A stretch of DNA of 64,000 nucleotides from a virus. The notes beneath the pieces are model-generated. The model saw only the letters and a list, made by a program, of their open reading frames with translations. It was not told the DNA's origin and did no database searches. Shown here one piece after another: positions 18,842 through 23,738 of the stretch (its first letter is position 1; each line of letters opens with the position of its first letter). The stretch is taken from the IMG/VR virus record IMGVR_UViG_3300033145_002224, positions 1 through 64,000 of that record; one strand, given 5' to 3'. Position numbers and translations under genes: made by a program.

Positions 18842-18846
18842 TAAGG

Positions 18847-18875
18847 TTGATTATATAGATATGGTATGGTATGAT
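18847..18875 (+). promoter_or_regulatory. Internal promoter in front of the endonuclease gene
   Basis: TTGATT-17 nt-TATGAT with an extended -10 TG. Confidence 0.5.
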
Positions 18876-18899
18876 GGGAGTATAATTATTAAATAAAAA

Positions 18900-19367
18900 A
18901 TGATGCTTTCAAAAGAATTACAAATTGGAAAAGCAGGAGAACATCTTGTTTGTTATGATTTGATAAGACAGGGTTATAATGCTTTCTTGTCAGACCAGGG
19001 ATTACCCTTTGATATAATTGCTGAACAAAAAGGTATTTTAAAAAAAATTCAGGTTAAAACAACACAAAAATTATTTAGTTGCGGTAAAATTAAAAATATT
19101 TATCGCTTTGGATTAAGGAGAGCTAAAAATAAACAAGGGAGATTAAAAGAAGTTGATTGTGATTATTATGCATTTGTTGCATTAGATATAAAAATTATTG
19201 CCTATATCCCGATGAAAAAAATGTATGGTCGTAATAATAAATTGAAATCTACGATGGATTTTAAAAGTAGAAATATAAAATATTTTGGTCGTACATATCC
19301 AAACGGAACGGTTAGAAATCCCGATTGGGGTAAATGTTTACAAGATTTTAATAAATTTAATTTTTAA
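18900..19367 (+). CDS. Free-standing PD-(D/E)XK endonuclease (group I intron-associated type)
   Basis: IGKAGEHLV...PFDII...IQVKT...DYYAFV. Confidence 0.85.
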   Translation: MMLSKELQIGKAGEHLVCYDLIRQGYNAFLSDQGLPFDIIAEQKGILKKIQVKTTQKLFSCGKIKNIYRFGLRRAKNKQGRLKEVDCDYYAFVALDIKIIAYIPMKKMYGRNNKLKSTMDFKSRNIKYFGRTYPNGTVRNPDWGKCLQDFNKFNF

Positions 19368-19368
19368 T

Positions 19369-19987
19369 ATGCAAAAGAAAGGAAAAACGGTCGGCGTGAA
19401 CAGTGGAAAAAAATATTCCATTATTTACGCCGACCCGTAATCCGCCTTGGAAATATAATAGTCGGGCAAATCATAAAACTAGGTTTAGGGGAGGGGCATG
19501 TGGTCATTATAATTTAATGACTATGGATGAAATAAAAGCATTACCAGTCCCAACATTAGCAGCCAATAATTGTGTTTTATTTCTATGGACAACATTCCCT
19601 TACCTTGAAGACCAGATAAAATTATTTAAACATTGGGGCTTTAAATATAAAACACTGGGGTTTAGTTGGATAAAGACCAACTCTAAGAGCGGTACTCCAT
19701 TTTTTGGTGTAGGATATTATGCAAAAAGTAATTGTGAGGTTTGTTTGATGGGTATTAAAGGAAAAATGAAACCAGTATCGAATAAGGTTTCATCTGTTAT
19801 AATTTCACCCAGAAGAGAGCATAGTAGAAAACCAGATGAAGTAAGAGAAAAAATTGTAGAATTATTTGGTAATTTACCACGTATAGAATTATTTGCCCGT
19901 GATAAAACTCCCGGATGGGATTATGTAGGTAACGATATTAATAATGAAGATATTAATATTTCGATAAAAAAATTAATAAAAGCATAA
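19369..19987 (+). CDS. MT-A70-family N6-adenine methyltransferase, interrupted inside the DPPW motif (recoded or pseudogene)
   Basis: Frame 0 from ATG 19369 reads KKYSIIYADP-stop; the +1 frame continues PPWKY...HYNLMT...LFLWTT...WGFKYKT...EHSRKPD...IELFAR. Confidence 0.85.
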
Positions 19988-20890: not shown

Positions 20891-21142
20891 ATGACAAAAG
20901 TTAAAGAACCAATTTCATTAAATGAATTAGCAAAAGAACTTGGCTTGTCAAAATCTGCGCTAACATATTATACGTCAATGGGTTTACTTGAGCCGGTCAT
21001 GCTGGTTAGTAAAATGCGTGTCTTTGAAAAGAAAGACGCCTTACGTATAATTAAAAAAATTCAAGAAGGTAAAAAAAGCGGTTTATCATTAAAAGAGATC
21101 AAATCATCTTTAAATGAAACAAATAACAAAAGAAAAAACTAA
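20891..21142 (+). CDS. MerR-type HTH DNA-binding protein
   Basis: SLNELAKELGLSKSALTYYTSMGLL...GLSLKEIK. Confidence 0.85.
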   Translation: MTKVKEPISLNELAKELGLSKSALTYYTSMGLLEPVMLVSKMRVFEKKDALRIIKKIQEGKKSGLSLKEIKSSLNETNNKRKN

Positions 21143-23738
21143 ATATTTCGAATACTTATTTGCATTTGATTACAGTTTGGATATTCTTGAGTTTTGTAGA
21201 CACCTCAAAAAGAAACATGGATTTCGTCATTTTGGTTATGTCCCAGAAAAAAAGGCTTGGGGATTCAATAACTCAACAATTATTGATGAAATTAAATCCA
21301 GGTATAGTGATGCAGCTATTTCATCAGACGCTACAAACGCATCTGAACAGGCGAAATTAGAACTAGCAGCTGATGAACTCTTAGTTAAAAACGTGAATCG
21401 TATTAAGCGTGCGAAGACTTCAAACATCCAAATCAAAGGACTTAAAAAAGAGCTTTACCCATATCAAAAAGTAGGGGTTGAGTTTTTTGTTAGTGCTAGA
21501 GGAAGAGCCGTCCTGGCTGACGAAATGGGCGTTGGTAAAAGTATACAAGCTATTGCATATACCATACATCAAGAATTTTCAAGAACATTAATTATAGCAC
21601 CAGCGAGTGTAAAATATTCTTGGGAAGCAGAGATTAAAAAGTGGACTAATTTAAAAACCTGTGTAATAGATAGTAAAACAAACCTGGAACAAGCGCTATT
21701 AATTGATTATAATATTTATATAATCAATTATGATATATTAAAAAAATTCTATAATCAACTTAGATTTGCCAGATGGGATTGCCAGGTAGTAGATGAATGT
21801 TTTACTGATAAAACAGAAATTTTAACAGATGAAGGATTTAAACAATTTAATAAATTATCAAAAAAAGAAAAAATAGCCCAATGGGATAATGGAAATATTT
21901 CTTTTGTTAAACCATTAAGATATATAGAAAGAGATCATAGTGGTGAAATAGCAATGTTTAGAGTAAAAAATAATATTAATGTCCCTATGACATTAGGGCA
22001 TAATCAAATTTTAATAAATAAATCTACAAGTAAAGTAATCAAAAAACCAATATCTAAATGTAGTTTTAATAGTGGTTGGTTACTTCCAATTTCTGGTTTA
22101 TCTACGATAAAGAGTAAAAAATTATCCTCACTAGAAAGAATGTACATTGCGATACAGGCAGATGGATCAATCCACGGTGTTTTTAAAAATCATGTTACTA
22201 TAGCATTTTCTTTCAAAAAGAAAAGAAAAATAATTAGAATAAAAAAATTAATAAAAGAAACCAACCTAGAATGGTCTGAAGTAAAACCTGGCCGTGGCGC
22301 ATCTGTTAGATTGATGGTAAAAATGCCACTTGGGACAACAAAGGATATAAGAAACCATATTAAATATCCCATGGGTGCAGAAAAGGCCAGGGAAATTATA
22401 GAAGAAATGGTTAATTGGGACGGACACAGGACTTGCACTGGTAATCAATATTATTTTTCCTCTAAAGATAAGAATCAGGTTGATTTTTATGCTCAAGTTG
22501 CTATTTTAGCGGGGCATAGATGTTACCAAAGTATTCAAAAAGATAATAGAAAAGAAAATTATTCTGATATATATAGACTTTATATTTCGATTAATAAGAG
22601 AGTGGTAGGTACTCAGGGGTGTTTTGTTAAATCATCTTATTATAATGGAAAAGTTTACTGTGTGGAGGTTCCATCTGGGGCGATCATAGTAAGACATAAT
22701 GGATATATTTTTATTAGTGGTAACTGTCATTATATTAAGAATCAAAAAGCGATTAGAAGTAAGATGGTAAAAGGTATAGGCGCTGTTATACCACATATAT
22801 TATTATTATCAGGAACACCAATGCTGTCCAGGCCGGTTGAACTATATAATGGTTTAAACTTATTAGACCGAAGTAGGTGGAATAACTGGTATGATTTTTC
22901 TGTTCGTTATTGTAACGGTCATCAGGGAAGGTGGGGCTGGGACACCAAGGGCTCTTCAAATATACCTGAATTAAGACAAAAGATAGAAAGATATTTCTTG
23001 CGAAGAACCAAGGAAGAGGTTCTACCAGATTTACCAGAAAAACAATATATAGACCTGCCGATTGAACTTTCACCAGAAGAAAGAAAAAACTATAATTTTG
23101 TAGAAGAATCTTTTGTAGATTATTTAAGAGAAATCAAGTTAATGAAAGATAAAGATATTAAACGTAGTATGCAGGCTGAAACACTTGTTAAATTAAATGA
23201 GTTACGTCAAATCACTTCCAGGGGTAAAATAAAGCACGCAGAAGAAGTTATCCAAAATATAATTGACAGTGGACAAAAAGTAGTAGTATTTTCGGTATAT
23301 AATGAACCATTAATACACCTTAAGGAAAAGTTCGGTGAAGATGCTGTCATGCTTATAGGGAATATGTCTGGACCTGAGCGACAAAAGATGATAAATAAAT
23401 TTCAAGAAGATTCTAATGTTAAAGTATTTCTTGGTGGCACGAAAAGCGCCGGTGTGGGTATTACGCTAACTGCTGCTTCAAATGTTTTATTATGCGATTT
23501 TCCCTGGAATCCAAGTGACATGAGACAGGCGATTGATAGATGTCACCGGATAGGTCAAAAAAACTCAGTTTCTATTTATCAATTATATGCAAGAAATACA
23601 ATAGATCAGTATATGAGAGAATTAATTGACGATAAACAAAAAATATTTAATGAATTAATTGAGGGAAAAATTGAAGAAACAAAACAAAAGGGGATTAATC
23701 TTGTAGCTAATGTAATACGAAAAATAGAGGAAAAATAA
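21114..23738 (+). CDS. SNF2/HARP-like (SMARCAL1-type) helicase with an intein
   Basis: LYPYQ, LADEMGVGKS, DE/CH, LSGTP, LRRTK, GVGITLT, QAIDRCHRIGQ. Confidence 0.93.
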   Translation: MKQITKEKTKYFEYLFAFDYSLDILEFCRHLKKKHGFRHFGYVPEKKAWGFNNSTIIDEIKSRYSDAAISSDATNASEQAKLELAADELLVKNVNRIKRAKTSNIQIKGLKKELYPYQKVGVEFFVSARGRAVLADEMGVGKSIQAIAYTIHQEFSRTLIIAPASVKYSWEAEIKKWTNLKTCVIDSKTNLEQALLIDYNIYIINYDILKKFYNQLRFARWDCQVVDECFTDKTEILTDEGFKQFNKLSKKEKIAQWDNGNISFVKPLRYIERDHSGEIAMFRVKNNINVPMTLGHNQILINKSTSKVIKKPISKCSFNSGWLLPISGLSTIKSKKLSSLERMYIAIQADGSIHGVFKNHVTIAFSFKKKRKIIRIKKLIKETNLEWSEVKPGRGASVRLMVKMPLGTTKDIRNHIKYPMGAEKAREIIEEMVNWDGHRTCTGNQYYFSSKDKNQVDFYAQVAILAGHRCYQSIQKDNRKENYSDIYRLYISINKRVVGTQGCFVKSSYYNGKVYCVEVPSGAIIVRHNGYIFISGNCHYIKNQKAIRSKMVKGIGAVIPHILLLSGTPMLSRPVELYNGLNLLDRSRWNNWYDFSVRYCNGHQGRWGWDTKGSSNIPELRQKIERYFLRRTKEEVLPDLPEKQYIDLPIELSPEERKNYNFVEESFVDYLREIKLMKDKDIKRSMQAETLVKLNELRQITSRGKIKHAEEVIQNIIDSGQKVVVFSVYNEPLIHLKEKFGEDAVMLIGNMSGPERQKMINKFQEDSNVKVFLGGTKSAGVGITLTAASNVLLCDFPWNPSDMRQAIDRCHRIGQKNSVSIYQLYARNTIDQYMRELIDDKQKIFNELIEGKIEETKQKGINLVANVIRKIEEK
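21798..22724 (+). mobile_element. Intein (309 aa) with LAGLIDADG-type endonuclease, inserted in the Walker B DExH motif
   Basis: DE|CFTDKTEILT ... VYCVEVPSG...ISGN|CHYIK; MTLGH block B; IQADG and NWDG endonuclease blocks. Confidence 0.92.

Follow-up and report, generated by a model that had tools for sequence, protein, structure and literature searches.

The locus

The gene described here encodes an MT-A70 adenine methyltransferase (methylase) whose catalytic DPPW motif is split by a stop codon. It lies in a 64,000-nucleotide stretch of viral DNA, hereafter the window, that comprises positions 1 to 64,000 of IMG/VR record IMGVR_UViG_3300033145_002224; the source virus record of 101,437 bp is rated complete, and the G+C content of the window is about 32%. 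Directly upstream of the split gene is a gene for a free-standing endonuclease. The features of the locus are listed below (position, strand, description and basis; ORF, open reading frame).

18842..19455, plus strand: shared, apparently mobile cassette (promoter, nuclease, leader, hairpin, gap and PPWKY codons), from sliding identity to the phage locus L006
18847..18875, plus strand: promoter-like site, TTGATT, 17 nt, TG-TATGAT, from a consensus scan
18900..19367, plus strand: free-standing PD-(D/E)XK endonuclease gene, 155 aa, I-Ssp6803I-like, from Pfam PF11645 and a fold match
19369..19437, plus strand: leader ORF from ATG to the take-off codon, 23 codons, MQKKGKTVGVNSGKKYSIIYADP, from base reading and the ORF list
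19387..19438, plus strand: hairpin of 52 nt with 5' arm 19387-19408, loop 19409-19415 and 3' arm 19416-19438, from minimum free energy folds, shuffles and covariation
19435..19437, plus strand: candidate take-off codon CCG, first Pro of DPPW, a CCN codon with the stop directly after it in eight of eight lineages
19438..19441, plus strand: coding gap TAAT (TAA 19438-19440 and T 19441), from base reading
19442..19444, plus strand: candidate landing codon CCG, a CCN codon in eight of eight lineages
19442..19987, plus strand: MT-A70 methyltransferase body, PPWKYNS..., 181 codons and a stop, from Pfam PF05063

The leader starts at ATG 19369, which is located 1 nt past the nuclease stop codon, and continues for 22 codons, the last ones being AAA-AAA-TAT-TCC-ATT-ATT-TAC-GCC-GAC-CCG (...KKYSIIYADP) with GAC at 19432-19434. 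Behind the landing CCG follow CCT and TGG (19448-19450), and the downstream frame is open up to the TAA at 19985-19987. In the DNA the motif is split as D-P / stop / P-P-W and it becomes contiguous only given a hop; a skip of 7 nt from CCG 19435 to CCG 19442 restores DPPW in the window gene. A preliminary description of this DNA had read the ATG, the CCG-TAA-T-CCG arrangement, the restored DPPW and the intact remainder of the gene in the same way, and this reading is borne out by the letters as well as by Pfam, where the methylase body matches PF05063 with an E value of 4.7e-31 over profile positions 7-171 of 172. It was also right in stating that the ORF list opens the downstream frame at a GTG: the frame is called solely from GTG 19403.

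More than 6,000 homologues of the window methylase were found, and nearly all of the best 120 start with M-(x)-KKY-x-IIYADPPWKYNSRANHKTRFRGG, which is the exact outcome of skipping 7 nt between the CCG codons. Deletion of the 7 nt yields KKYSIIYADPPWKYNS, the N-terminus of more than 100 close homologues. The methylase body is 79-85% identical to uninterrupted homologues and has no stops in its own frame, compared with 17 and 29 in the other two frames, and a genome search identified it as the sole MT-A70 gene in the 101-kb phage record. On the comparative evidence given below we consider it probable that the gene is decoded by a programmed short translational hop (a stop-hop) that is carried on a mobile homing-endonuclease cassette.

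A family of gapped MT-A70 genes

Further interrupted genes were sought with a pattern consisting of I-I-Y-A-D codons, 1-12 nt of any sequence and CCN-CCN-TGG-AA. The scan added two cases from IMG/VR and six loci from JGI metagenomes, and after de-duplication the collection amounted to eight gapped lineages including the window. Their take-off codons and gaps, landing codons (after the slash) and the resulting moves are as follows.

Window: CCG-TAA-T / CCG, move 7 nt
L005 (same gene as ENA protein P0084): CCG-TAA-T / CCG, move 7 nt
L006 and L016: CCG-TAA / CCA, move 6 nt
L008: CCG-TGA / CCA, move 6 nt
L015: CCG-TAG / CCT, move 6 nt
L002: CCT-TAA / CCT, move 6 nt
L001 (= L010): CCG-TAA-TTA / CCG, move 9 nt
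L011: CCA-TGA-ATGTT / CCT, move 11 nt

It is clear from this list that the eight lineages have a common design at the same site, GAY-CCN-stop-(0-5 nt)-CCN-CCN-TGG, in which the gap letters are TAA, TGA, TAG, TAAT, TAATTA or TGAATGTT. The move is 6 nt in four lineages, 7 nt in two, 9 nt in one and 11 nt in one, so that all three frames and all three stop codons are represented. As expected of a hop, the stop stands directly after the take-off codon in every lineage, the codons on both sides are throughout CCN codons that one tRNA could read, and the gap lengths do not obey the triplet rule. Take-off and landing codons are identical in four of the eight lineages and differ at the wobble base only in the remainder (CCG/CCA, CCG/CCT and CCA/CCT); a tRNA(Pro) with a modified U34 reads all these CCN codons. 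A CCN-to-CCN hop is favoured because it is the sole single event that would restore DPPW at every gap length, and a Pro-to-Pro hop also explains why the third CCN codon is kept in 8/8 gapped lineages.

Pairwise identity among the eight methylase bodies is 34-79%, and each body is open for 170-202 codons. The 7-nt gap of the window is also present in the independent metagenome contig L005, with variants in six further lineages, and the phage genomes L006 and L016, which are 95.7% identical and come from different samples, have the same 6-nt gap. Neutral evolution of the downstream codons, which according to the preliminary description would point to a pseudogene, was not seen: when the window was compared with L005, L033, L034, L035 and L036, the non-synonymous divergence (pN) was 0.12-0.20 per site and the synonymous divergence (pS) 0.65-0.87, the latter at or near saturation, and the frame is intact. 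The independent lineages and the intact, constrained frames together rule out an assembly error and make it very unlikely that the gapped genes are pseudogenes. In an approximately unbiased (AU) test on the tree, monophyly of the window and L005 was not rejected (p-AU 0.59). A single origin of their 7-nt gap is compatible with this result, and independent origins inside that subfamily are therefore not claimed.

The leaders of all eight gapped genes are lengthened to 16-36 codons and bear the 5' arm of the hairpin described below, whereas uninterrupted homologues mostly start 4-8 codons before DPPW. The only sense we can see in such a leader is that the ribosome has to translate the hairpin first.

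The other matches to the pattern are explained by chance similarity in other genes, by an extra Asp codon in frame, or by homopolymer and 1-nt breaks that have no hairpin. The last group consists of MT-A70 genes that are broken at the same DPPW codons, in L003 (2153-2179), L004/L007 and L012 (contig ODKC01000180.1), by changes in the length of a C-run (GAT-CCCCCC-A-TGG and GAC-CCCCCCCC-GTGG) or by one extra A, and these breaks may be sequencing errors or else slippage-prone or phase-variable sites. No gaps of 13-42 nt and no match to the exact pattern of the 7-nt form were found in viral contigs, and a looser pattern without the IIY codons, together with a scan of genome contigs, gave chance matches only, as checked by translation. 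An empty-site relative of the window phage was not found, and none of the fetched loci shares the neighbouring genes of the window.

Two predicted MT-A70 proteins of 148-150 aa, P0246 and P0358, start at an internal Met just past the motif, and their identity to the L006 body is 97% and 70%, respectively. Both are probably gapped alleles that a gene caller has truncated, and P0358 may represent a further gapped lineage. Another sequence, P0017 from a Logan contig of 970 nt, has a window-type leader, MTKKGKNVGVEGGKKYSIIYADP, yet reads ADPQPPW in frame, which is what a 6-nt gap would give if its stop had changed to CAA. Its branch in the tree is long (0.72 versus a median of 0.2), and it may be a decaying derivative or a sign that a 2-residue insert is tolerated.

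A hairpin that ends on the candidate take-off codon

The preliminary description had noted a GC-rich hairpin ending on the take-off codon, and folding confirmed it at 19387-19408 / 19416-19438. The S-I-I-Y-A-D-P codons make up the 3' arm, with the take-off codon at its end, and the structure has a GC-rich outer stem, a 1x1 internal loop and an inner stem of 7 bp. The 111-nt stretch of the window folds with -35.2 kcal/mol, corresponding to z = -4.9 relative to dinucleotide shuffles, and z = -8.8 when the 5' part alone is shuffled.

When the eight gapped genes were folded separately, each of them formed a hairpin of 16-27 bp whose 3' arm is the (Y)-S-I-I-Y-A-D-P codons and which ends on the take-off codon. 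Stability was compared over the 68 nt ending at the take-off codon (or the corresponding codon), with only the 5' part shuffled. The folding free energy (dG) of the gapped genes was between -23 and -31 kcal/mol with z values of -4.9 to -10, whereas 14 distinct uninterrupted viral homologues had dG values of -1 to -16 and z values around 0, the two strongest being -2.4 and -3.0. Such a hairpin is thus present in 8/8 gapped and 0/14 ungapped genes.

A MAFFT/RNAalifold alignment gave only 7 pairs because the loops differ in length, and it was replaced by codon-anchored folds and a covariance model. In the former, positions were anchored on codons and the partner was taken from the fold of each sequence itself. 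Across the lineages G-C, U-A, A-U and C-G pairs all occur at the third position of the Ala codon, while the pairs are G-C or A-U at that of the Asp and Tyr codons and A-U, G-C or G-U at the Ile third positions; the Ser codon alternates between UCC and AGY, and its partners alternate likewise. All 14 G-U pairs are valid on the sense strand only, and C-A mismatches are confined to one cassette lineage. We take the sense-strand-only G-U pairs and the covariation as evidence that the structure is selected in the mRNA. In the covariance-model alignment, which was fitted to the structure and is biased towards it, 94% of the cells in the outer 9 bp were paired, compared with 26-39% when the partner was slid, and three pairs were changed on both sides; the 8 double-change cells were reached by 0/500 shuffles. 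The preliminary description had proposed that the 5' arm exists to pair with the conserved codons and had suggested looking for covariation among homologues. Covariation was found across the eight lineages and supports the proposal together with the 5'-only shuffles and the 14 controls.

The hairpin would then be the stimulator of the hop. Neither Rfam nor NCBIfam returned a match. An intrinsic terminator was rejected as an identity for the structure, as there is no U tract and none was found in a terminator scan.

In L011 (2535-2610, minus strand) the Shine-Dalgarno region GGAGGAACA can pair with the gap and landing codons UGUUCCUCC, outside the main hairpin. Pairing between the Shine-Dalgarno region and the gap is also seen in L015, L008 and L002, it lengthens the structure by 5-9 bp, and it might gate initiation. 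The start codon of L011 is the first triplet of the 5' arm, and its gap holds an ATGA overlap with the ATG in the landing frame.

The nuclease and the cassette

The window nuclease matches Pfam PF11645 (PDDEXK_5) with 31.2 bits at a cut-off of 26.1, and its homologues in L006 and L011 score 33.2 and 39.2 bits. The AlphaFold model of the protein has a predicted local distance difference test score (pLDDT) of 89, and its best fold match in the Protein Data Bank (PDB) is the homing endonuclease I-Ssp6803I (2OST; E 1.9e-6, template-modelling (TM) score 0.58-0.65), which is also the sole sequence-level PDB match; some weaker fold matches are restriction enzymes. In 54 homologues D38 is unchanged throughout and Q51-V52 are nearly invariant, and the QVK residues align with QVK of 2OST. 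The nuclease has 208 homologous clusters, and a search for it in viral contigs gave no relatives. The promoter-like site at 18847-18875 has a counterpart at the same position in L006, TTGACA-17-TATAAT, and would serve as the cassette's own promoter. The earlier claim of an endonuclease gene with its own promoter, ending 1 nt before the ATG, is upheld for the PDDEXK_5 match and the spacing, and the promoter function is suggested by the consensus and by L006.

DNA similarity between the window and L006 begins at approximately 18856, at the promoter-like site, and stops at approximately 19455, just past the PPWKY codons. The sliding identity is 65-87% in this region (about 72% over 18856-19455), and both flanks are unrelated, with identity at the background level. 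The two nucleases are 76% identical and the two methylase bodies 38%, and each of the two methylase subfamilies has more than 100 uninterrupted members at 60-85% identity, with relatives of each body at 75-85% among them. A shared unit of about 600 bp attached to methylase bodies of 38% identity implies movement of the cassette with one end at the DPPW codons, and the comparison supports the view that it has moved between distantly related MT-A70 genes. The window and L006 carry one cassette with a gap that differs by one base, as expected of a non-coding gap and not of a coding insert.

In three lineages, namely the window, L006/L016 (nuclease 76% identical) and L011 (50% identical), the gene immediately preceding the gapped methylase is a PDDEXK_5 gene. 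No such gene precedes the methylase in L001, L002, L005 and L008, and the 24 uninterrupted viral loci all lack it. The co-occurrence that the preliminary description had suggested examining is consequently partial, three of seven lineages with and four without the nuclease. Its concept of a cassette combining an endonuclease with immunity by bypassing holds with respect to mobility, given the boundaries shared by the window and L006, but not with respect to a strict nuclease link, which is missing in four of seven lineages and is accompanied by an unbroken methylase in Klebsiella phage KO-TP1. By analogy with mobA and gene 60 of phage T4, the gap most likely breaks the nuclease target in the conserved DPPW-coding stretch, and the position of the cassette boundary is indirect evidence for this. 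It would thereby shield the carrier from its own nuclease, and would persist after loss of the nuclease since precise removal is rare.

In KO-TP1, a cultured phage (L057, PQ571297.1, 2483-3648), the PDDEXK_5 gene overlaps the start of the MT-A70 gene by 25 nt, and the methylase reads LIMADPPWAY where its relatives have IIYADPPWKY. The pair may be a hop-free form of the same nuclease-methylase association, and it shows that this pairing is wider than the gap; immunity through a change of the coding sequence, as in KO-TP1, is possible. A distant PDDEXK_5 homologue, phi3T_195 of Bacillus phage phi3T (L058, KY030782.1, 2001-2444), is 29% identical and has no methylase gene adjacent. Together with phi3T_196 it lies in a stretch annotated as without an SPbeta counterpart, consistent with a mobile family.

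Further downstream in the window, at 21114-23738, is a gene for an 874-aa SNF2-family helicase in which the SNF2 domain is present in two stretches with about 330 residues between them that have no Pfam match. The boundaries of the split are intein-like (...DEC/FTDKTEIL... and ...HNGYIFISGN/CHY...), and the insert may be an intein with a homing endonuclease, that is, a second selfish element within 2 kb of the cassette.

Weighing the hop against other explanations

Several observations speak against a programmed hop on a homing-endonuclease cassette. The gapped lineages found number just eight, and take-off and landing codons are the same in just four of them, so that the others would require a tRNA(Pro) reading several CCN codons. 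The nuclease accompanies the gapped methylase in three of the seven lineages with upstream sequence, which leaves the nuclease link incomplete, and the KO-TP1 nuclease homologue (40% identical) is located directly before an uninterrupted MT-A70 gene. As the gap may have arisen only once for the window and L005, part of their methylase divergence may predate it. If the P0017 enzyme works, a 2-residue insert may be tolerated and the hop may not be strictly needed. Finally, the product of a +1 shift in the window would read ...IIYADPNPPW.

The last two points bear on ordinary recoding, which we find unlikely but which survives best among the alternatives. It would involve read-through of the 6- and 9-nt forms, a +1 shift in the 7-nt form and a +2 or -1 shift in the 11-nt form, leaving 2-3 extra residues before PPW. 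NPPW is a known and legitimate variant of the N6-methylase motif, and the in-frame ADPQPPW of P0017 places a 2-residue insert in at least one predicted protein, though one on a long branch. On this explanation, however, three different mechanisms would share one conserved signal, and the third CCN codon would be left without reason in 8/8 lineages. A +1 shift would place the tRNA(Pro) opposite CGU, with which it could not re-pair, and read-through would put Gln, Tyr, Lys or Trp at the position of the catalytic Asp/Asn; moreover, a hairpin on the 5' side is no known stimulator of read-through.

Less likely again is a dead methylase, the gene having been broken by the cassette and the hairpin being either a relic of insertion or useful to the cassette, for instance by stabilising the 3' end of the nuclease mRNA. 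Arrival of the gap with a selfish element would fit such a history. However, the eight frames are open for 170-202 codons in AT-rich DNA where the other frames of the window body have 17 and 29 stops, and pN is far below pS. The hairpin has been kept, with compensatory changes, in four lineages without the nuclease, and the complete 101-kb phage genome has no MT-A70 gene other than that of the window.

We rate lower still the idea that nuclease and methylase form a restriction-modification-like pair, with the gap and hairpin throttling or timing methylase synthesis. In its favour, the window, L006, L011 and KO-TP1 (the last with an unbroken methylase) all have a PD-(D/E)XK nuclease gene immediately before that for an adenine methylase, and some of the weaker fold matches are restriction enzymes. 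By fold as well as by sequence, however, the nuclease matches the homing endonuclease I-Ssp6803I best. Four gapped and 24 uninterrupted viral loci lack the nuclease, which moves independently of the methylase body (76% versus 38% identity), and in such a pair an under-made methylase would be self-destructive. Even if true, this explanation would not replace the hop as the decoding mechanism.

It is very improbable that the active enzyme starts at GTG 19403, giving MEKNIPLFTPTR-NPPW... and making the leader ORF irrelevant. This start was called in the ORF list, and L005 has an ATG in the same frame after AAGGAG. The GTG nevertheless has no Shine-Dalgarno sequence and sits within the inner stem of the hairpin, and a protein begun there would be without the conserved KKYSIIYAD strand. 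Where the gap keeps the frame, namely in the five lineages of the 6- and 9-nt forms, PPW is out of reach of any upstream start, and gene callers then pick an internal Met past the motif, as in P0246. An assembly or sequencing error has a negligible probability: homopolymer-type breaks do occur here in other MT-A70 genes (L003, L004/L007 and L012), but the gap is not a homopolymer, and the identical 7-nt gap in an unrelated contig and six other variants in independent metagenomes each come with a matching hairpin.

Two further routes to the full-length enzyme were rejected. Re-initiation after the stop lacks an in-frame start in all lineages except L011, and deletion at the DNA level between the 3-nt repeats was considered as the normal route of expression and discarded.

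A possible mechanism of the hop

Above we compared eight gapped lineages, and this comparison strongly supports the core of the preliminary description, a hairpin-aided hop between matched Pro codons over a stop. From it we infer the following course of events, including the hop itself, its efficiency, the driving role of the hairpin and the coupling to the nuclease ORF.

Transcription would start at the cassette's own promoter. ATG 19369 has no Shine-Dalgarno sequence of its own, and ribosomes that end the nuclease ORF would re-start there, probably by coupling. During translation of the 23-codon leader they would melt the hairpin, and would then stall with CCG 19435 occupied by peptidyl-tRNA(Pro) and the A site by TAA. 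At this point some 12-15 nt of the 3' arm would still be inside the ribosome, whereas the 5' arm, the loop and the inner 7-bp stem would already be outside and free to re-form. Each pair added to the outer stem would require one mRNA base to be pulled out on the exit side. A C-terminal Asp-Pro before the stop is a poor termination context in E. coli, which would give time for a hop. During slow termination the codon-anticodon pairing would open, and zipping of the stem would bias the mRNA forward. No cognate triplet would be met until the CCG at +7 (6-11 nt in the relatives), where the tRNA would re-pair, and decoding would resume at CCT-TGG to give the normal YADPPWKY enzyme.

A more far-reaching proposal, which we put forward tentatively as a possibility, is that the family constitutes a portable minimal bypass module. 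In such a module a hairpin spring on the exit side would pull the mRNA forward by 6-11 nt, efficiently and with no signal from the nascent peptide or from within the gap, and the module would have arisen to provide immunity, being one half of an element whose other half is a free-standing PD-(D/E)XK homing endonuclease of a new class that targets the DPPW codons of MT-A70 genes.

Comparison with known systems

The closest parallel is gene 60 of phage T4 with the endonuclease MobA. Here as there, a stop is located directly 3' of the take-off codon, mRNA structure is present (its stimulatory role in the MT-A70 genes being our proposal), and the gap, placed where the coding sequence is highly conserved, moves together with the gene of a free-standing endonuclease and is kept after loss of the nuclease. 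For gene 60, pairing of the mRNA that leaves the ribosome has been proposed to drive forward bypassing (Wills et al., bioRxiv 10.1101/2024.12.09.627546), and bypass cassettes are reported to outlive the loss of their endonuclease (Manning & Atkins, bioRxiv 10.1101/2022.08.31.505936). The differences are nevertheless considerable. The gap is 6-11 nt in the MT-A70 genes and 50 nt in gene 60, and it contains no structure and is accompanied by no mini-Shine-Dalgarno sequence; the nascent chain of 16-36 residues makes a tunnel signal of the gene 60 type unlikely. The sole conserved structure is one long hairpin on the exit (5') side, with the take-off codon as part of it, whereas poor conservation is reported for the 5' stem-loop of gene 60. 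Pro codons are used instead of Gly codons, the host gene encodes a methylase and not a topoisomerase, the nuclease is of the PD-(D/E)XK and not the HNH type, and the MT-A70 host gene has not been divided into two ORFs that have gained tails. The MT-A70 cassette would accordingly work like the gene 60/MobA family but is not a member of it, as its host gene is MT-A70, its gap in the window is 7 nt and its nuclease belongs to PF11645.

Synthetic stop-hops in E. coli, constructed by Weiss, Dunn, Atkins and Gesteland in 1987, used matched codons around a stop, with 9 nt decoded as one amino acid (PMC5009743). The four 6-nt forms found here have that design, for example CCT-TAA-CCT in L002. Those constructs, however, hopped at a low level and had no stimulator, whereas the present genes are natural and conserved, have a strong hairpin and include out-of-frame gaps.

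The byp elements of Magnusiomyces capitatus mitochondria comprise 81 sites of 27-55 nt that are apparently context-independent and depend on relaxed mitochondrial decoding (PMC5009743). They resemble the MT-A70 gaps in being short frame-breaking inserts corrected in translation, with take-off and landing codons that are not always perfectly matched. In the MT-A70 case, by contrast, there is one site per genome, with a dedicated hairpin and bacterial ribosomes.

As for the nuclease, I-Ssp6803I was the first homing endonuclease shown to have the PD-(D/E)XK fold (PMC3384342). It belongs to the same Pfam family PF11645, is the best fold match and has the same D...QVK core. It differs in being encoded in a group I intron of a cyanobacterial tRNA gene, whereas the window nuclease is free-standing, lies upstream of a phage methylase and shares 15-20% identity with it.

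Implications

No published description of a hop in an MT-A70 gene or at a DPPW motif was found in the literature searched. Natural short stop-hops have been expected since the constructs of 1987, and decoding by such a hop is almost unknown in natural genes. A 2016 review stated that no natural in-frame stop hopping was known (PMC5009743), and a 2022 survey called the gene 60 cassette unique (bioRxiv 10.1101/2022.08.31.505936). At a practical level, gene callers mis-annotate the gapped genes, either with starts in the wrong frame (P0084) or as truncated ORFs (P0246).

With a 7-nt gap, one hairpin and a 23-codon leader, the family described here would be a far simpler natural system than gene 60. 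Its only conserved candidate stimulator sits exactly where the disputed exit-side driver has been proposed, which makes the driver model directly testable with a reporter of about 100 nt. If the immunity that we propose by analogy is true, a PD-(D/E)XK enzyme would be added to the endonucleases that carry immunity of the bypass type.

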